From positions 32,072 through 96,071 of the forward strand of contig CALOAN010000044.1 in the NCBI GenBank assembly GCA_942491345.1: a DNA stretch of 64,000 bases. Direction: 5' to 3'. Shown piece after piece: positions 39,167 through 58,733 of the stretch. Below the pieces are notes generated by a model. It searched no databases. It had not been told where the DNA came from and worked only from the letters and a program-made list of their open reading frames with translations. Each line of letters opens with the position of its first letter. Position 1 is the first letter of the stretch. The translations under genes and the position numbers were made by a program. This DNA comes from an uncultured actinomycete. GTDB lineage: Bacteria; Actinomycetota; Acidimicrobiia; Spongiisociales; UBA5794.

Positions 39167-40147
39167 ATGTCCCAACGCGCCACTCGAAACCGTCATACGT
39201 CGACTCCGCGGGCCACCGTGTGGGTCGAGCTCGGCCTGATGTCGTTGATGTGGGGCAGCGCCTTTCTCCTGATAAAGGTTGCGGTTCCGACCGTTCCTGC
39301 CTTCACCATGTCGGCGGCGCGGGGCCTCCTGGCAGCAGTCCTCTTGTGGATGGCCATTCGTGCAACACGGCGAGCGAAACCGCGATCGAATGATCGGTGG
39401 TTGCCGGCACTGGTGCTCGGAACCGTGAGTGGCTGGCTCCCGAACGTCCTGACGGCGTGGGCGTTGCTGCGTCTCGACAGCTCGGTCGCGGGAATGCTCA
39501 GCGCCGCGTCGCCGATCTTCGTGGTGATCCTGGCTCACTTCTTCCTCACCAATGAACGTATCCACGGCTCTCAGGGCGTCGGCATCATCGTCGGCTTTGT
39601 CGGTGTCGCTCTGATCATCGGTGTCACTCCCGGCTCGTTCGGGGAGGCCGACCTGGCGGGTCAGCTCGCGATGGTCGCAGTCTCGCTCAGCTACGCCGTA
39701 GGTGCGGTGTATGCCCGTCGGATTGGACCTCAAGACGCCCCGCAGCTCGCAATGCGCCAGCAACTCGTCGCTGGTTCATTTGCGCTGCTCGTGGCGATTG
39801 CACTCGAGCAGCCGTGGAACGTCGATCCCGACCCGATCGCCGTGGTTGCCATCATCGGCCTGGCAGTGTGGGCGAGCGCGATCCCAATCTGGATCTACTT
39901 CCGGATGCTGGCGCACACCAAGGCCATCACCGTGTCGCTCGTTGCATATCTCATTCCTGCGGTTGCAGTGATCCTCGGTGCGCTCGTTCTCGGCGAGGCG
40001 CTCAAGCCGACGTCTGCGCTCGGCCTGGCAGTAGTGCTGACCGGTGTTGCCATCGCAACCCGGCCCCGCCGGACACGGGCCGCGCCACCCGTTTCGGCCG
40101 GTGGAATCGAGCCGGACGAAGCCGTCGACGTCGCCCAAGAGGACTAG
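39167..40147 (+). CDS. EamA/DMT-family transporter (10 TM)
   Basis: Two EamA repeats (LMWGSAFLLIK...; ...WASAIPIWIYFRML) and hydrophobic throughout. Confidence 0.85.
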   Translation: MSQRATRNRHTSTPRATVWVELGLMSLMWGSAFLLIKVAVPTVPAFTMSAARGLLAAVLLWMAIRATRRAKPRSNDRWLPALVLGTVSGWLPNVLTAWALLRLDSSVAGMLSAASPIFVVILAHFFLTNERIHGSQGVGIIVGFVGVALIIGVTPGSFGEADLAGQLAMVAVSLSYAVGAVYARRIGPQDAPQLAMRQQLVAGSFALLVAIALEQPWNVDPDPIAVVAIIGLAVWASAIPIWIYFRMLAHTKAITVSLVAYLIPAVAVILGALVLGEALKPTSALGLAVVLTGVAIATRPRRTRAAPPVSAGGIEPDEAVDVAQED

Positions 40148-40165: not shown

Positions 40166-40777
40166 TCAGTCGCCGCTACCGACCGACACCGCGGCTGAGG
40201 GTTCGGTCGCCCGGCCGCGAGGAGCGGAGGTGCGGGTACGAGGCGAATCTGCAGTCGTCCCTCGCTGGAGGACGATCCGCACGATCAGCAGCCCGACAAC
40301 CAGGACGCCTGCCCCGGCGTACAGACCGGTGACAATCGGGTTTGTTGTGTCGGTCCCGGCCAGGATCCCGTGGACCAGCGCCCCCGCAAATGTACCGAAT
40401 GCCAAGAAGTGGATCGTGCGCCACACCTTCTGACCGATGAGGCCCTTCACGTAGAAGCTCAACGTCACGACAGCGAGGCCGTAGAAGGAGGTGACGCCCA
40501 GCGCGACGGCTGTCGGTTCCCACGAGGCGGCACCGGGAACAAGCACATCGACCCACCCGAACTCGATGTACCGGTCCATGGTGAGCGCAACCATGTGGAC
40601 TCCGGTGGCGATGAGGGCACCGAGTCCGAGCGACTCGTGGAACCAGGTGAGCGGCTTGGCCTTGAACGCCCGGCCGAACAGCTTGGTCGACACGATCAGA
40701 CCCCAGATCGTTGAAGCAGCAACGAGGCCGAAGGCGACGAGACCGGACCCGCGTATGACAATCCACTCGATGTTCAT
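40166..40777 (-). CDS. Ferric-reductase-like / MsrQ-like di-heme transmembrane protein
   Basis: Six TM helices with four His in helices (WFHESLG, TGVHMVAL, TIHFLAF, ALVHGILAG). ATG 40777 overlaps the apbE stop (ATGA). Confidence 0.78.
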   Translation of the reverse strand: MNIEWIVIRGSGLVAFGLVAASTIWGLIVSTKLFGRAFKAKPLTWFHESLGLGALIATGVHMVALTMDRYIEFGWVDVLVPGAASWEPTAVALGVTSFYGLAVVTLSFYVKGLIGQKVWRTIHFLAFGTFAGALVHGILAGTDTTNPIVTGLYAGAGVLVVGLLIVRIVLQRGTTADSPRTRTSAPRGRATEPSAAVSVGSGD

Positions 40778-41625
40778 GCCGCCATCTCCAGCCCGGTCGT
40801 GGCATAGACGTTGCCGTCGCGCCACACGGCGAGCGCGCCACGGATCCACGGCTGGCGATCAGCCCACGCCAAACCATCCGCACCTTGAAGCAGGATTGCC
40901 TTGGCTGCGGCTTCCGCCTCGAGCGCGGTGGCAGTGATCGCAGACGCCTGTAGGACCGGTCCGACGCTCGGTTCCATGGTGCGGGGATCGATTAGATGGT
41001 TCGCCTCTCGATCCCCGAAACGCCAACGACGCCTGGAGACTGAACTCGTCGCGAGCGCACCAACCCCTAACAAGGCCGATGCTGTGATGTCTCCCCACGG
41101 ATCGACGATCTCCACCACGGCATCGGGCACAGCAGATCGAACGTCACCGCCGGCTGAGACGATGCACGCGTCCCCCCGCTCGACGGCCAGATCACAGGTC
41201 CATCCTTTTGCCACCCCGCCGAGGTCTATCGTTGTGCCTCGGCTGCGGGTGAGCACTGCTCCCTGCACCGACCACTCTGGTCTTGTCTCAACGACGGGGG
41301 CCGCTCTATCGCTTCGGTCGCGCACACCCTCGAAACTACGGTCGTAGCCCCAGGCGCGTACCGCAGTTCCCAAACCCGCGTCGACGAACCCGTGAGAGAT
41401 CGTCCGGGCCGTGTCCGCGGCGTGCATTACCTGGGCCATCAACGGGGAGAGCGATACTTCAGATGCCGGACAACGGTTGATGTGATTCAACTCGCTCTCG
41501 AGGAGGAAACGGCTGCACGTTCCCTCGACAGCATCAAAAAGGCGACGCGTCTCCACCATCGCGTCGTCGGTCGGGGCCGTGACGTCGACGGTCGTCCCCA
41601 TGGCCTGGAAAAGGTCTCGCTTCAT
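40774..41625 (-). CDS. apbE: ApbE-family FAD:protein FMN transferase
   Basis: MGTTVDV..., IDLGGVAKGWTCDLAVE, and HLIDPRT motifs typical of ApbE. Confidence 0.85.
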   Translation of the reverse strand: MKRDLFQAMGTTVDVTAPTDDAMVETRRLFDAVEGTCSRFLLESELNHINRCPASEVSLSPLMAQVMHAADTARTISHGFVDAGLGTAVRAWGYDRSFEGVRDRSDRAAPVVETRPEWSVQGAVLTRSRGTTIDLGGVAKGWTCDLAVERGDACIVSAGGDVRSAVPDAVVEIVDPWGDITASALLGVGALATSSVSRRRWRFGDREANHLIDPRTMEPSVGPVLQASAITATALEAEAAAKAILLQGADGLAWADRQPWIRGALAVWRDGNVYATTGLEMAA

Positions 41626-42011
41626 GATCCGGAACTCTGCACCGGTGCTGATGGCGCTGGAGCCGGTGCGGCCGGTGCCGCCGACGCCGGTGCTGCGGCC
41701 GAGCCGCCGCCTGAGGATCCGGCCACCACAACGGTGCGGGTCACGACCTGCGGCGGAGGTGGCGGCACCGGCGTGTAGCGAACAACAACGAGTCCACGCT
41801 CAGGCAGCTCTGGCACCGGTGCAAGAGTTGTTGTTGTGGTCGACGTAGTCGTCGGCGGTTCGAACGCCAATGGAAGCGCAGGCTCCTCGGCGGGTCCGGC
41901 GGCGTTTGTACTGCTCGCCACGGCGATTGCCGCGGTCCCCCAGGCCAGCGCCGCGCCGGTCCACGCGGCGATCTTCGCCCAACGCAGCGGGAAGAGCCTC
42001 CTGATCATCAC
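41622..42011 (-). CDS. Exported/TM-anchored Pro/Thr/Ala-rich low-complexity protein (129 aa)
   Basis: N-terminal hydrophobic helix followed by TTTSTTTTT, PPPPP and AP-repeat tracts. Both ends are coupled by ATGA overlaps. Confidence 0.55.
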   Translation of the reverse strand: MMIRRLFPLRWAKIAAWTGAALAWGTAAIAVASSTNAAGPAEEPALPLAFEPPTTTSTTTTTLAPVPELPERGLVVVRYTPVPPPPPQVVTRTVVVAGSSGGGSAAAPASAAPAAPAPAPSAPVQSSGS

Positions 42012-42409
42012 GGTGATACCTCTGCGGATTCGGCACCATCGGCCTGGGTTGCAATGGTCAGGGTGACTTCTCGTTCGATGAGGAGGGCGAGCACCGCAGG
42101 CGGCAGCGCCCCTTCAAGCTCGTCGGGAGCTGTGCTGGTGGCGTATCCATTCCCGTACAGCACCCGCGAGACCGCGTCTCCGACGCCGGCAAGGTCCGGT
42201 GTCGGAGCGGGAACGGTGATGACGACGGGATCTGTCGACGTCGTCGTGGTCACCGTCGCCGTGGTCGTTGAGGTTGGGGCGGGGGCAACGACCACGGGTT
42301 CAGGCGCCAACTCCTCGCCTTGACCGGCACCGAACATCGCGACCAGCGCGAACACACCGATCGCCATGACGGCGAGGCCCGCGGCAGTTGATGTCAACGT
42401 GGCTCTCAT
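42008..42409 (-). CDS. TM-anchored Thr/Pro-rich protein (133 aa)
   Basis: N-terminal TM (AAGLAVMAIGVFALVAMFGA), a Thr-rich linker, and a small C-terminal domain. Start overlaps the upstream stop (TGATG). Confidence 0.55.
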   Translation of the reverse strand: MRATLTSTAAGLAVMAIGVFALVAMFGAGQGEELAPEPVVVAPAPTSTTTATVTTTTSTDPVVITVPAPTPDLAGVGDAVSRVLYGNGYATSTAPDELEGALPPAVLALLIEREVTLTIATQADGAESAEVSP

Positions 42410-43047
42410 CAGTCGTCGTGATCGTCGTGGTCGTCGTGATTGTCGTGGTCGTCGTGGTCGTCGTGGTCGTCGTGGTCGTCGTCGTCGTCGTGGTCGTCGT
42501 CTTCGTCGTGGTCGTCGTCTTCGTCGTGGTCGTCGTGAGATGTCGGCGATTCGTTGTCCGGCGTGGACTGGTCATCCATCGTGGTTGTCGTCGTTGGGTC
42601 CGGCGAAGAATCGGCTACCGCAACGGTCCGAACCACCGGAGGTGGCGCGGGTGGGCCGGGCAACTCGAGTCCTTCCTCGGCACAGATCTGTCGGAGAGAG
42701 TCGAGCGCGGCCTGCTCGAGTTCGTTGATCGTGCCCTCGGCCTCACGCTCGACAAGTTCCCAGCCTTGTTCCCCGCATGCCGCCTCGAGGTCCGCCCTCG
42801 TGAACGTTGGCGGATCGGAGACGAAGACCGTCTCAACCGTGTCCGCTGCCGTCGTCGTCACGACGACCTCCGGCACCTCGGTCACGGCTACCGCCTCTGC
42901 CGTCTCTTCGGTTCCTACATCCCCGCTGTCTGAGATCACCGCAGCGGCTGCAACCGCACTGAGCGGCACAAGCAGCATTCCGAGGATCAAAGAGACCGTG
43001 AACACGCTGGACCGTGGTTTGTTGCCCTGGGACGAGCGATTTGTCAT
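42409..43047 (-). CDS. Secreted protein with a C-terminal ~43-residue His/Asp(-Glu) tail
   Basis: AGGAGG lies 5 nt before the ATG (taggaggtaaccATG). It has a signal/TM segment and a central Cys-pair domain. The tail is SHDDHDEDDDHDEDDDHDDDDDHDDHDDHDDHDNHDDHDDHDD. Confidence 0.65.
   Translation of the reverse strand: MTNRSSQGNKPRSSVFTVSLILGMLLVPLSAVAAAAVISDSGDVGTEETAEAVAVTEVPEVVVTTTAADTVETVFVSDPPTFTRADLEAACGEQGWELVEREAEGTINELEQAALDSLRQICAEEGLELPGPPAPPPVVRTVAVADSSPDPTTTTTMDDQSTPDNESPTSHDDHDEDDDHDEDDDHDDDDDHDDHDDHDDHDNHDDHDDHDD
42412..42540 (-). repeat. Coding trinucleotide microsatellite ((GTC/GTG)n on the plus strand, giving (GAC/CAC)n = Asp/His codons)
   Basis: Directly visible as gtcgtcgtgatcgtcgtggtcgtcgtgattgtcgtggtcgtcgtggtcgtcgtggtc... 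Confidence 0.9.
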
Positions 43048-43294
43048 GGTTACCTCCTAAGTGGACACTCTCAGTGGCCGAATACTGCCGATTCGAGGGA
43101 TAAGGGTGCGCTAAGCGCGCGTAAAGTGGTCGATAGATCTCGAGAGCGGCGCACCCAACACGTGGAGTGGTCGCTGCGTCGCGCGGACGAACCGGACGGA
43201 ACCAGCTTCACAGAATGATCACACTCTCCTCTTCGGTGCAACACACCCAGCCGTCAGAGTTGTCGCTGAAAGTTCCCGATACCAGGAGGACAAG

Positions 43295-43918
43295 ATGAAT
43301 CGACGAACCACGATCCTCGCGGCAGTCATCGCCGCGGTTGTCGCGCTTGCCGCCGTGCCCGCGCTCGCCCAAGAGGCGGGCACGGCAGAACGACCGGACC
43401 GGCCCCAACGCCTCCACCCACCGGCGTGGGTCGGCGAAACGGTTGATGAGTTGCGCGCACGAATCGCCGATCGAGTCGCGGCGGCAGAAGAGCGGATCGC
43501 CGATTCAGTTCGGCTCACCGGTGATCAGAAGGCACAGGCGATCGAGAATCTTGCAGACGCGACCGCCGCTATTGCCGCCGTCGACGAACCGGTCGAGATC
43601 GTTGGCACTGCGACGTCGCGCGCTCAACTCCAGCGGATCGCTTGGAGAGCCGAGAGAAGGGGCGAGACCCCCGACTACGAGGAACACATCGCTCGTGACT
43701 TGGTTCAGGACACTCGCCGCTACGACCATCTCGTCACGATCACCGGATGGGCGGGGGCCGCGGGCGTGGATGTGTCGGAGGTGAACGGCTACCTCGAGAA
43801 TGCGGCGGGACAGCTCTCGGCCGCAGACAGCGACGGCACCGTCGAGCAACGCCACGACGCGGTTCACATCGCGCGAGCGTGGATGACTCAGGCTCACACG
43901 ACCCTCATGGCCGAGTAG
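43295..43918 (+). CDS. Secreted helical protein of unknown function
   Basis: AGGAGGA lies before the ATG. Signal peptide ends AVPALAQEAG. The mature part is Ala/Glu/Arg-rich and helical. Confidence 0.6.
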   Translation: MNRRTTILAAVIAAVVALAAVPALAQEAGTAERPDRPQRLHPPAWVGETVDELRARIADRVAAAEERIADSVRLTGDQKAQAIENLADATAAIAAVDEPVEIVGTATSRAQLQRIAWRAERRGETPDYEEHIARDLVQDTRRYDHLVTITGWAGAAGVDVSEVNGYLENAAGQLSAADSDGTVEQRHDAVHIARAWMTQAHTTLMAE

Positions 43919-57998: not shown

Positions 57999-58733
57999 GT
58001 GCCCAACGAGACCAACGTCCGCGAAGCTGTCCGGGACCGCTACGCCAACGCTGCACGCAGCGCGGGACAGTCCTGCTGCTCGTCAGACACCAGCAGTGAG
58101 GAGGGCGACTTCGGGCGCGACCTCTACCCCGCCGCCGACCTGGTCGATGTACCGTCGGGAGCATCTTCCGCCAGTCTTGGCTGCGGGAATCCCACCGCCG
58201 TGGCCGAACTCTCCGAGGGTGAGACGGTCCTGGATCTCGGCTCCGGAGCAGGGATCGATGTGCTCCTCTCCGCCAAGAGGGTCGGTCCGACCGGCTTCGT
58301 CTACGGCATCGACATGACCGACGAGATGCTCGAACTCGCGCGGCGGCACGCAGCGGAAGCCGAAATGCCCAATGTCGAATTCCGCAAGGGCTACATCGAG
58401 GACATCCCGCTCGACCATGCCTCGGTCGACGTCGTCATCTCGAACTGTGTGATCAACCTCTCCGCAGACAAGCCGCAGGTATTTGCAGAGATGGCCCGCG
58501 TTCTCAGGGCCGGCGGCCGCCTTGGTATCAGCGATGTTGTGGCAGATGACGAACTCAGCCCCGAGGAACGACGCGAGCGCGGAAGTTGGGTTGGTTGCAT
58601 CGCCGGAGCGCTGTCCTTCTCCGAATATGCAGAGGGATTGAGCAACGCCGGATTCGAATCCGTCGAGATCACGCCGACCAATAGCGTCGCGGACGGCATG
58701 CACTCGGCGATTATCAGAGCCGTCAAGCCATAG
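57999..58733 (+). CDS. arsM: Arsenite S-adenosylmethionine methyltransferase
   Basis: GTG start is preceded by GAGGAG. It has an N-terminal Cys pair (QSCCSS), LGCGNP, SAM motif I ([12 protein letters not shown]), and VISNCVINL. Confidence 0.85.

Follow-up and report, generated by a model that had tools for sequence, protein, structure and literature searches.

A conserved five-gene ApbE operon of Acidimicrobiia with a small membrane protein as candidate C-terminal flavinylation substrate

One of the main ways in which bacteria move electrons outside the cytosol is flavinylation by ApbE. In the MsrQ-like clusters of Actinobacteria described by Méheust et al. 2021 (eLife, PMC8238504), apbE adjoins a gene for a PF01794-type two-heme transmembrane (TM) protein and, as an earlier note on this DNA had rightly stated, an FMN-binding acceptor is normally included, encoded by an FMN_bind gene and often accompanied by a fused NAD-binding domain or a NuoF-like partner. 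Clusters entered that study only if ApbE or FMN_bind bore a signal peptide; signal-less ApbEs were discarded, and orphan ApbEs with unassigned substrates occurred in about 4% of the genomes surveyed (PMC8238504). All that ApbE requires is a short linear motif, which works best at a protein terminus, tolerates changes of G to A and of A to V, and accepts Ser (PMC12052999). The motifs of the Flavin-tag and of FMN_red proteins are canonical, D-x-x-[ST]-G-A-[ST]; in FMN_red proteins, which keep a folded flavin pocket, unstructured C-terminal extensions are flavinylated (PMC12052999; PMC11334425). The ApbE of Klebsiella pneumoniae has no signal peptide and is a true flavin transferase, its substrate being a cytoplasmic soluble fumarate reductase with an FMN_bind domain (cited in PMC12052999).

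The operon described here (g1 to g5) lies in a window of 64,000 nucleotides, the whole stretch of DNA that was analysed. It shares with the MsrQ-like clusters of PMC8238504 the adjacency of apbE and a two-heme protein gene, the actinobacterial lineage and a presumed transmembrane electron transfer, possibly iron-linked. Unlike them, it lacks FMN_bind, the NAD domain and the ApbE signal peptide, and encodes three unannotated single-pass proteins instead. One of these, g3, has a candidate short C-terminal linear motif outside the FMN_bind fold, as in the Flavin-tag and FMN_red proteins, but it ends in S-x-G-S-COOH without any folded domain. The ApbE, g4, resembles that of K. pneumoniae in having no signal peptide, but it is encoded next to membrane proteins, and its candidate site would, by prediction, come to lie outside the cell. 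The cytochrome, g5, has the same ferric-reductase-like di-heme membrane fold as Escherichia coli MsrPQ (YedYZ), and some sources call its homologues YedZ. In contrast to MsrPQ, it falls below the Pfam cut-off, is coupled to ApbE and has no MsrP partner nearby, since no MsrP-like molybdoenzyme gene was found in the operon or in the 20 neighbouring genes scanned. Literature searches returned no description of this cassette, and no Acidimicrobiia or PF03413 entry was found in a part of the supplementary tables of PMC8238504.

Organization and conservation of the operon

The five ORFs are chained by stop/start overlaps on the minus strand, with an AGGAGG in front (Table 1). Three of the junctions are as the earlier note had read them, TGATG between g1 and g2 (42407-42411) and ATGA both between g3 and g4 (41622-41625) and between g4 and g5 (40774-40777). 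The remaining one, g2/g3, had been given as ATGA; its sequence is GTGATG, which provides either a GTGA overlap (42008-42011) or a TGATG overlap with the ATG at 42008-42006. The translational coupling of five genes, proposed from this single sequence, is conserved: about 65 independent Acidimicrobiia MAG loci carried the identical five genes, gene order and overlaps, and an arrangement repeated so many times independently is not due to chance. Among 80 Acidimicrobiia loci found with g5, essentially every one with sufficient flanks showed the order g1-g2-g3-ApbE-g5. The possibility raised earlier that relatives might not keep the three upstream genes with ApbE and g5 was thus not borne out, since they were strictly retained.

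Table 1. Positions in the window of the operon genes and associated sequence features
Feature	Position	Strand	Description
AGGAGG ribosome-binding site	43053..43058	-	Read from sequence; g1 ATG 5 nt downstream
g1	42409..43047	-	ORF, 212 aa
Tandem array in g1	42412..42537	-	9-nt unit, 14 copies, CAC GAC GAC on coding strand, encoding the His-Asp-Asp tail of g1; Tandem Repeats Finder
g2	42008..42409	-	ORF, 133 aa
g3	41622..42011 (GTG start) or 41622..42008 (ATG start)	-	ORF, 129 or 128 aa
Last four codons of g3	41625..41636	-	Ser-Ser-Gly-Ser; candidate non-canonical flavinylation site; last codon overlaps apbE start (TCATGA)
g4	40774..41625	-	ORF, 283 aa
g5	40166..40777	-	ORF, 203 aa

Searches of g1, g2 and g3 against Pfam and NCBIfam revealed no family. 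The alignment of g1 orthologues showed a conserved TM segment (LLVPLSAVAA) followed by a T/P-rich linker, and this single-pass protein looks membrane-anchored rather than freely secreted; the earlier note had called it secreted. Two invariant cysteines (C91 and C122) lie in its small domain of three helices, a further motif reads PPAPxPVVxTVxV, and the protein ends in a poly-Asp/His tail; in every orthologue the tail is acidic and interspersed with His, Tyr or Arg. The AF2 model of g1 shows a TM helix at residues 15-36, helices at 84-124 with a pLDDT of about 90 and a disordered remainder; a Foldseek comparison of this model with the PDB gave nothing significant (no match below E = 4.6). The second protein, g2, is also single-pass. 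Besides a T/P-rich linker it has a C-terminal domain of about 50 aa that is only weakly conserved, and in the orthologue comparison none of its Ser, Thr, Cys or His positions was invariant. A paralogous relationship of g1, g2 and g3 was considered and rejected: g1 and g3 are linked only by an 18-column PxPxVV..TVxV motif (hhalign probability 15%), and the apparent g1-g2 and g2-g3 matches resulted from contamination of the g2 alignment by read-through ORFs.

The ApbE and the cytochrome

The identification of g4 as a member of the ApbE family of FAD:protein FMN transferases was upheld by its match to Pfam PF02424 (E = 1e-34, 120.7 bits for a cut-off of 25.6, profile positions 1-258 of 266), and the profile of its clade matched ApbEs of the PDB with E = 1e-30 to 1e-18. 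S194 and H210 are invariant, and an invariant E238 occupies the position of the Asp in the Vibrio cholerae triad (Ser241, His257, Asp285), which is a conservative change. With the Ser/His/acid triad retained as S194, H210 and E238, g4 looks active, as far as can be judged from these residues. A departure is seen at K242, invariant in the clade motif AEAxAKA, which stands at the Thr of DxxxT, in the region where TM1553 and the ApbEs of V. cholerae and E. coli have ADxxxT. This position is a Lys in 118 of the 139 nearest g4 representatives, giving [E/D]xxxK as against the periplasmic DxxxT. The conserved Thr of DxxxT is reportedly a metal ligand, according to work on Treponema pallidum Ftp. The AMGT motif of g4 follows after only 8 residues, with no N-terminal lipoprotein or secretion signal, and a hydrophobic N-terminal segment was present in none of the 139 nearest representatives, indicating that they have no signal peptide. 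These results lend no support to the extracytoplasmic flavinylation suggested in the earlier note.

The last gene, g5, encodes a stand-alone MsrQ/ferric-reductase-like cytochrome b with about five TM helices and no NAD/FAD domain. Its match to Ferric_reduct (PF01794) was weak (E = 1.2e-3, 19.3 bits, under the 28-bit cut-off), and many of its homologues at 52-68% identity have a precomputed match to this family. The heme-ligand His pairs, H47/H61 and H123/H136, lie on one helix each, about 13-14 residues apart. All four are invariant in 14 diverse homologues, in agreement with the four helix-embedded His and the di-heme nature attributed to g5 from the start.

The C terminus of g3 as a candidate flavinylation site

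The absence from g1-g3 of an FMN_bind domain and of a [S/T]GA[S/T] motif, already remarked on, was corroborated by profile and motif searches: FMN_bind (PF04205) was not found in these proteins at E <= 1, and neither D-x-x-[S/T]-G-A-[S/T] nor [S/T]GA[S/T] occurs in g1-g5 of the window. In the orthologue sets, [ST]GA[ST] is sporadic (2 of 72 for g1, 1 of 76 for g2, 10 of 84 for g3, 0 of 90 for g4 and 5 of 92 for g5). The genes neighbouring the operon encode no FMN_bind and no conserved [S/T]GA[S/T]. A D..SGAS motif at 57999-58733 was rejected as a canonical acceptor because the protein is a SAM methyltransferase and the match coincidental. Neither g1 and g2 nor the g5 loops showed an invariant Ser/Thr motif.

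The g3 protein has a basic N terminus. Its TM helix is conserved (R..RW.RI..WTGAALAWGT), its linker is disordered and its C terminus invariant, and it carries GLVVxRYxP and PEVxT(R)TVxV as linear motifs. Its charge distribution (+2 to +4 in the N-flank, about 0 to -2 in the C-flank) predicts an N-in topology with the tail outside. The 92 homologues have 78-156 aa, mostly 108-135, and none is fused to another domain; every named match is from Acidimicrobiia or Actinomycetota. In the AF2 model the only helix spans residues 8-34, residues 70-90 have a pLDDT of 81-88, and the tail has no folded flavin-binding pocket. When 32 homologues were individually compared with Pfam (E <= 10), neither a recurrent family nor FMN_bind appeared, and the g3 profile matched only a designed coiled coil among PDB sequences (E = 0.38).

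Of the 75 distinct junction sequences, 73 have [S/T]-x-G-S-COOH closing g3, after a hypervariable tail. In a set of 73 distinct junctions, the amino-acid entropy amounts to 0-0.7 bit over the final four positions versus 2.1-3.0 bits over the eleven before. The Gly is encoded by all four of its codons and the Ser at -3 by both codon families, and this synonymous codon use implies selection on the amino acids. An AGY codon is used for the Ser at -4 in nearly all cases, and part of this conservation could stem from a ribosome-binding signal ahead of apbE, the start of which is overlapped by the g3 stop throughout the junction set (TCATGA or TCGTGA). That the C-terminal Ser of g3 is the FMN acceptor of a transmembrane electron-transfer module is, in our assessment, the best reading, at about even odds. 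Three other ideas on g3 were discarded. Tat export was rejected since the RR of the window is not kept, relatives having KR, SR or QR. A programmed frameshift from g3 to ApbE found no slippery sequence at TCATGA and no shift that would join the frames. Finally, the "long ApbEs" of 381-421 aa (P0299-P0301 and P0303), which might have been Rosetta stone fusions of g3 and ApbE, have Arg/Gly-rich N termini in the wrong frame and are thus gene-calling artefacts.

An outgroup ApbE alignment was used to retrieve distant sister clusters from metagenomes, where a g5-like (MsrQ-like) gene again follows ApbE. A small one-TM ORF with a [ST]xx[ST][RK]?-COOH terminus precedes ApbE in 44 of 70 of these loci, compared with 6% of background ORFs, and ends at the apbE start. 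Some of the tails carry the canonical motif, SGAT (L149 and L166) or SGAS (L147); others are SGGS, TSGS, TRSS(R) and TRTS. Homology of these proteins with g3 is undetectable and only the architecture is common to them, but the SGAT, SGAS and SGGS tails link the g3 tail to the canonical flavinylation motif and support g3 as a candidate. The RTRSSR-type proteins have an N-flank of +2 to +4 and a C-flank of about 0 to -2; in a few other tail types the N-flank reaches up to +7. In SGAT/SGGS proteins (L149, L166, L136, L105 and L161), the stretch following the TM helix is at least as basic as the N-flank, which makes their topology ambiguous or C-in. Partner proteins of the sister clusters, with a PepSY domain or acidic tails, are of extracytoplasmic types. 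The unrecognised flavinylation substrate postulated in the earlier note has thereby gained a specific candidate, S-x-G-S-COOH of g3, backed by the sister tails, while the extracytoplasmic setting given to the reaction is not supported.

Proposed mechanism, alternatives and implications

We propose that the products of the operon make up an ApbE/MsrQ-like module for electron transfer in the membrane, in which g5, as a two-heme b-type cytochrome, would pass electrons across the membrane and the signal-less g4 would transfer FMN from FAD to a Ser/Thr hydroxyl. The acceptor would be the extreme C-terminal Ser of the disordered g3, in place of a folded FMN_bind domain, so that about 90 flexible residues would tether the flavin beside the cytochrome. 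The Cys-stapled g1, with its poly-Asp/His tail, and g2 may supply the partner or acceptor on the extracytoplasmic side, where cations are possibly bound. The lack of a signal peptide on g4 and the predicted outside location of the g3 tail put enzyme and site on opposite sides of the membrane unless modification precedes export. Also weighing against the proposal are the departure of the g3 tail from D-x-x-[ST]-G-A-[ST] and its lack of a folded flavin pocket, the altered DxxxT motif of g4, the AGY bias at -4 and the undetectable homology of g3 with the sister tail proteins. We infer that the tail Ser of g3 is flavinylated, that this takes place in the cytoplasm and is followed by export of the unfolded tail, and likewise the direction of electron flow; metal reduction at the His/Asp tail of g1 is purely conjectural. 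Extended to the whole clade, this reading holds that a large group of signal-less ApbEs flavinylates the C-terminal Ser/Thr of disordered one-pass proteins in the cytoplasm, that the tail is threaded out, and that the tethered FMN takes up electrons at the outer heme of an MsrQ-like cytochrome and delivers them to cations bound by poly-Asp/His; in this full form it is possible but rather doubtful. The cation-holding tails would be those of g1 here and of PepSY-domain proteins elsewhere. If it is true, FAD export would be unnecessary.

The same separation of enzyme and site suits another explanation, which we consider unlikely: the ApbE substrate would be encoded elsewhere, or the site would lie in g5, g1 or g2, and the part of g3 in the cytochrome complex would be no more than structural or anchoring, the g3 C terminus being kept for partner docking, protease recognition or the nucleotides of the coupled apbE start. 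The departure of the g3 tail from the canonical motif fits this explanation, as does the AGY bias at -4, which may belong to a ribosome-binding signal, and the acceptor survey covered 64 kb of genome. Protein-level selection on the tail, indicated by the four Gly codons and the two Ser families at -3, speaks against it, together with the exact SGAT/SGAS tails found on unrelated small proteins encoded ahead of distant ApbEs and the lack of a visible invariant Ser/Thr motif in g1, g2 and the g5 loops.

A flavinylated g3 tail might also stay in the cytoplasm, where the tethered FMN would be the electron-entry cofactor of the cytochrome, standing in for the NAD/FAD domain that other MsrQ-like proteins of actinobacteria carry as a fusion or for the soluble flavin reductase of E. 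coli MsrQ. The NAD/FAD domain is indeed missing from g5, the ApbE signal peptide is absent clade-wide, and the outgroup SGAT/SGGS proteins are ambiguous or C-in by flank charge. We nevertheless hold a cytoplasmic tail to be quite improbable, given the positive N-flanks of g3 and the RTRSSR-type proteins, the extracytoplasmic types of the PepSY/acidic-tail partners, and the Thr/Pro-rich linkers of g1-g3, which resemble the extracytoplasmic tethers of which such linkers are typical. Finally, the invariant replacement in the g4 clade of the DxxxT Thr by Lys and of the Asp by Glu could mean that the signal-less [E/D]xxxK ApbE is no longer a transferase and works in the cytoplasm for the cytochrome complex, as a subunit that binds FAD, a flavin chaperone or a pyrophosphatase. 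FAD binding is a property of ApbE proteins, and some of the family are FAD pyrophosphatases (PMC4767422). This is very unlikely, since neither the triad nor the other ApbE motifs vary, the recurrent [ST]xx[ST] tail just before apbE, SGAT included, points to a transferase with a peptide substrate, and true cytoplasmic ApbE transferases exist, e.g., in Klebsiella (PMC12052999).

The C-terminal Ser of a small disordered membrane protein would be a new kind of ApbE substrate. If the proposed flavinylation of g3 is true, tiny disordered membrane proteins with a flavin on the last residue would constitute a widespread unannotated substrate class, served by a large signal-less ApbE clade with an altered DxxxT motif, and flavinylation would not be bound to a folded FMN-binding domain. 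The attachment of a cofactor in the cytoplasm and its export on an unfolded tail would then become directly testable, and so would the role of the cassette.

The five-gene cassette and its surroundings

The five genes (G+C content of the window, 63.8%) meet at TGATG between g1 and g2, GTGATG between g2 and g3, and ATGA both between g3 and g4 and between g4 and g5. Re-reading the ORFs and junctions upheld the description of this stretch in the earlier note except at g2/g3, where an ATGA overlap had been reported; the sequence allows an overlap of GTGA or of TGATG, and GTG is the clear start of g3 in relatives such as locus L008. The closest named homologues come from Acidimicrobiia MAGs, and context look-ups around homologues of the g5 cytochrome with 75%, 69%, and 56% identity revealed the same gene order. 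Scanning a g5 alignment against one genome per species yielded 80 loci, whose titles are nearly all MAGs of Acidimicrobiia, Acidimicrobiaceae, or Actinomycetota, with a minority under other bin labels (e.g., "Acidobacteriota," "Saprospiraceae," "Kiloniellales," and "Armatimonadetes"). Using HMMs of the cassette genes built from four seed loci, we found g1, g2, g3, ApbE (g4), and g5 in order at essentially all loci with enough upstream DNA. The possibility raised earlier, that the first three genes are not conserved together with ApbE and g5, is contradicted by this shared order.

No FMN_bind domain was found in g1 to g5, nor in a scan of 20 neighbouring genes. One match to the canonical flavinylation motif (D-x-x-[ST]-G-A-[ST]), DVPSGAS, arose by chance in a SAM-dependent methyltransferase (Methyltransf_31, E = 9e-33). 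Directly beyond g5 lies a convergent EamA-family transporter gene, which occupies the same place in the loci checked (L001, L006, L007, L008, and L009) and is one gene further off, beyond a hydrolase gene, in L010. At the other end, a divergent gene separates the operon from the gene for a 687-aa multi-receiver response-regulator protein; the product of this divergent gene begins with a signal-like segment and matches nothing in Pfam. A 207-aa gene also lies near the cassette in L008, but in L006 no such gene is directly adjacent. An OmpR-type response regulator and a HAMP/HisKA sensor kinase are encoded directly upstream in L010, in the orientation of the cassette, and in the window and L006 a large divergent multi-receiver protein takes the place of this pair.

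Coordinates of the cassette genes and associated features (window positions unless a locus is named)
Feature	Coordinates	Strand	Description
g1	42409-43047	minus	ORF, 212 aa
g2	42008-42409	minus	ORF, 133 aa
g3	41622-42011 or 41622-42008	minus	ORF, 129 or 128 aa
g4	40774-41625	minus	ORF, 283 aa
g5	40166-40777	minus	ORF, 203 aa
AGGAGG	43053-43058	minus	5 nt ahead of g1 ATG
Motif in g1	42598-42660		PPAPPPVVRTVAV
Motif in g3	41700-41760		PPPPPQVVTRTVVV
EamA-family gene	39167-40147	plus	convergent transporter gene
Divergent gene	43295-43918	plus	207-aa protein
Methyltransferase gene	57999-58733	plus	chance motif match
Regulator/kinase pair	L010:3699-5725		
g1 running into g2	L008:5807-6496		
g1 with insertion	L058:4639-5409		
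TM + PepSY-domain genes	L102:4243-4689, L104:1160-1867, L121:1-627, L123:3857-4624		
TM + PepSY-domain genes, further	L160:3602-4513, L162:2465-2965, L129:4067-4645		

Properties of the encoded proteins

The g4 protein matches the Pfam ApbE family (PF02424, E = 1e-34) and aligns with solved ApbE structures, namely TM1553 and the enzymes of V. cholerae, E. coli, and P. stutzeri. In this alignment, Ser241, His257, and Asp285 of the V. cholerae enzyme correspond to S194, H210, and E238 of g4, and the Thr four residues beyond that Asp, conserved as ADxxxT in three of these ApbEs (TM1553, V. cholerae, and E. coli), corresponds to an invariant Lys (K242). Orthologues of g4 have at most about eight residues ahead of the AMGT motif, and in every case their start codon shares bases with the stop codon of g3. 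Of 7,751 hits at E ≤ 1e-3 among 1.84 billion representative proteins, the 139 nearest full-length representatives (P0302-P0448) were surveyed. None of these 139 has a hydrophobic N-terminal segment or signal peptide, and 118 carry [E/D]xxxK (E…K in 94, D…K in 24), whereas the solved periplasmic ApbEs have DxxxT. The lack of a signal segment and the changed motif in its nearest relatives place g4 in a large signal-less ApbE clade. Four "long" ApbEs of 381 to 421 aa (P0299, P0300, P0301, and P0303), which might pass for anchored ApbEs or for fusions with g3, are wrong-frame public gene calls that extend upstream across g3 and thereby acquire Arg/Gly-rich junk N-termini.

The g5 protein scores 19.3 bits against Ferric_reduct (PF01794), under the Pfam cut-off of 28 bits. 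Many of its 389 homologues (about 185 to 250 aa) have a precomputed PF01794 match or bear the name YedZ or "predicted ferric reductase" in their source. Its invariant His residues (H47, H61, H123, and H136) form two pairs, one with a spacing of 14 residues and the other of 13, and each pair sits inside a single hydrophobic helix. By our own reading of the sequence, g5 would have five TM helices, and it has no NAD/FAD domain.

The g1, g2, and g3 proteins have no Pfam or NCBIfam match, and each carries one TM segment at the N-terminus with a Thr/Pro/Ala-rich linker behind it. In g1, the TM segment is conserved at G23, L25/26, P28, S30, A31, and A33/34, and two invariant Cys lie within the motif DL..ACG..G..LV..E..G.IT.LEQAALDALR.IC. 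After it come PPAPxPVVxTVxV and a poly-acidic tail in which His, Tyr, or Arg residues are scattered; in the window, a 9-nt unit present in 14 copies encodes this tail. AlphaFold2 models a confident three-helix domain at residues 84 to 124 (pLDDT of ~90), flanked by disorder and with no significant structural neighbour in the PDB. In the long-read Flye MAG of L008, the acidic tail leaves its frame and continues into g2 (…DDDDDARRQTTTRTTPMKR…), probably because of an indel error within the 9-nt repeat; the g2 start is intact in L009, a short-read contig of the same lineage. The g1 orthologue of L058 has an inserted helical stretch of ~57 aa (…AEFEEEYAETVAYINAAIADG…), which separates the conserved domain from the acidic tail. 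The C-terminal domain of g2 (~50 aa) is weakly conserved, and nowhere in this protein is a Ser, Thr, Cys, or His invariant. The g1 and g3 proteins have in common a short proline-rich, β-strand-like motif, which may be a shared docking element; hhalign aligned the two over 18 columns with a probability of just 15%.

The g3 C-terminus and its counterparts in sister clusters

The canonical flavinylation motif is conserved in none of the g1 to g5 proteins. The candidate acceptor g3 has a conserved TM helix (R..RW.RI..WTGAALAWGT), the linear motifs GLVVxRYxP and PEVxT(R)TVxV, and an invariant C-terminus. AlphaFold2 predicted the TM helix alone, with pLDDT of 81 to 88 over residues 70 to 90 in an extended conformation. 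The 92 database homologues (78 to 156 aa, most of 108 to 135), all from Acidimicrobiia or Actinomycetota where named, have no precomputed Pfam domain and no fusion to another domain.

In 73 of the 75 distinct junction sequences, g3 ends in [S/T]-x-G-S-stop. Amino-acid entropy at positions -4 to -1 is 0.25, 0.69, 0, and 0 bits, against 2.1 to 3.0 bits at -15 to -5. Gly is encoded by all four codons and Ser at -3 by both AGY and TCN; the last Ser codon is always TCA or TCG, where the overlap with the ATG or GTG start dictates the third base only. The entropy contrast and the synonymous codon use show selection at the level of the peptide. For Ser at -4, 69 of 73 sequences use AGY, a bias that could come partly from a ribosome-binding signal serving apbE.

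An alignment of outgroup ApbEs (35 to 43% identical to g4) retrieved 80 metagenome loci, most of which have a g5-like gene immediately downstream of ApbE (g5 HMM, E = 1e-13 to 1e-41 for complete genes). Among the 70 with upstream room, 44 encode a one-TM protein of 80 to 240 aa that ends in [ST]xx[ST][RK]?-COOH no more than a few bases from where ApbE starts (49 loci if a somewhat larger gap is allowed); the background frequency of such ends is 6% (117/1,961 ORFs). Some tails are of the canonical type (VSGAT in L149 and L166, TSGAS in L147); others are VSGGS, TTGGS, ITGGS, RTSGS, SRGS, TRAS, TRTS, and TRSS, with (A)RTRSS(R/K) very common. This series puts the canonical [S/T]-G-A-[S/T] at the extreme C-terminus of an architectural equivalent of g3 and grades into the S-S-G-S of g3 itself. 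Sequence homology between these tail proteins and g3 was not detectable, which is not surprising given their disorder.

The gene before the tail protein varies, often encoding a TM segment and a PepSY domain (PF03413, E down to 1e-21) and sometimes a helical protein, leaving the tail protein, the signal-less ApbE, and the MsrQ-like cytochrome as the constant core. The PepSY proteins end in a poly-Asp/Glu/His tail (e.g., HDDDHDDDHDDDDDD) like that of g1, with a different folded domain; an acidic, His-containing tail partner therefore recurs beside the core.

Proposed flavin transfer and its sidedness

A short linear motif suffices for ApbE, with termini the best sites, Ser accepted, and changes at the Gly/Ala positions tolerated (PMC12052999), and unstructured C-terminal extensions are flavinylated by ApbE (PMC11334425). 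From these properties we infer that g4 would attach FMN to the last Ser of g3 and that the tethered flavin would trade electrons with the hemes of g5. The system would work like the actinobacterial MsrQ-like flavinylation clusters, but it lacks their FMN_bind gene and signal peptide. Nor is it an MsrPQ system.

This proposal faces a conflict, since g4 is predicted to be cytoplasmic whereas the charges around the g3 TM helix (about +4 on the N-flank and -2 on the C-flank) predict an N-in topology with the tail outside. If the tail instead stayed in the cytoplasm, its FMN would serve as the entry cofactor of the cytochrome. This is a less likely but live rival: the charge distribution and the PepSY and acidic-tail partners, which are of extracytoplasmic types, speak against it, and its best case is some outgroup tail proteins, which have a strongly basic segment after the TM helix. 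We favour, as a speculation, a g3 tail that would receive its flavin in the cytoplasm and cross the membrane afterwards in an unfolded state, an order that would be helped by a motif placed at the extreme end of a disordered protein. Metal reduction at the His/Asp tail of g1 is a conjecture drawn from the composition of that tail and from the general link between flavinylation clusters and iron (PMC8238504).

Our searches of the accessible literature found no account of the five-gene cassette or of C-terminal tail acceptors beside signal-less ApbEs. The published genomic survey left out any ApbE or FMN_bind protein that lacked a signal peptide (PMC8238504), and this filter may be why the arrangement has so far gone undescribed. 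By its domain g4 belongs to the ApbE family, but its DxxxT motif and its predicted localisation are unlike those of the family, and the signal-less [E/D]xxxK ApbEs point to a large, apparently uncharacterised cytoplasmic clade.
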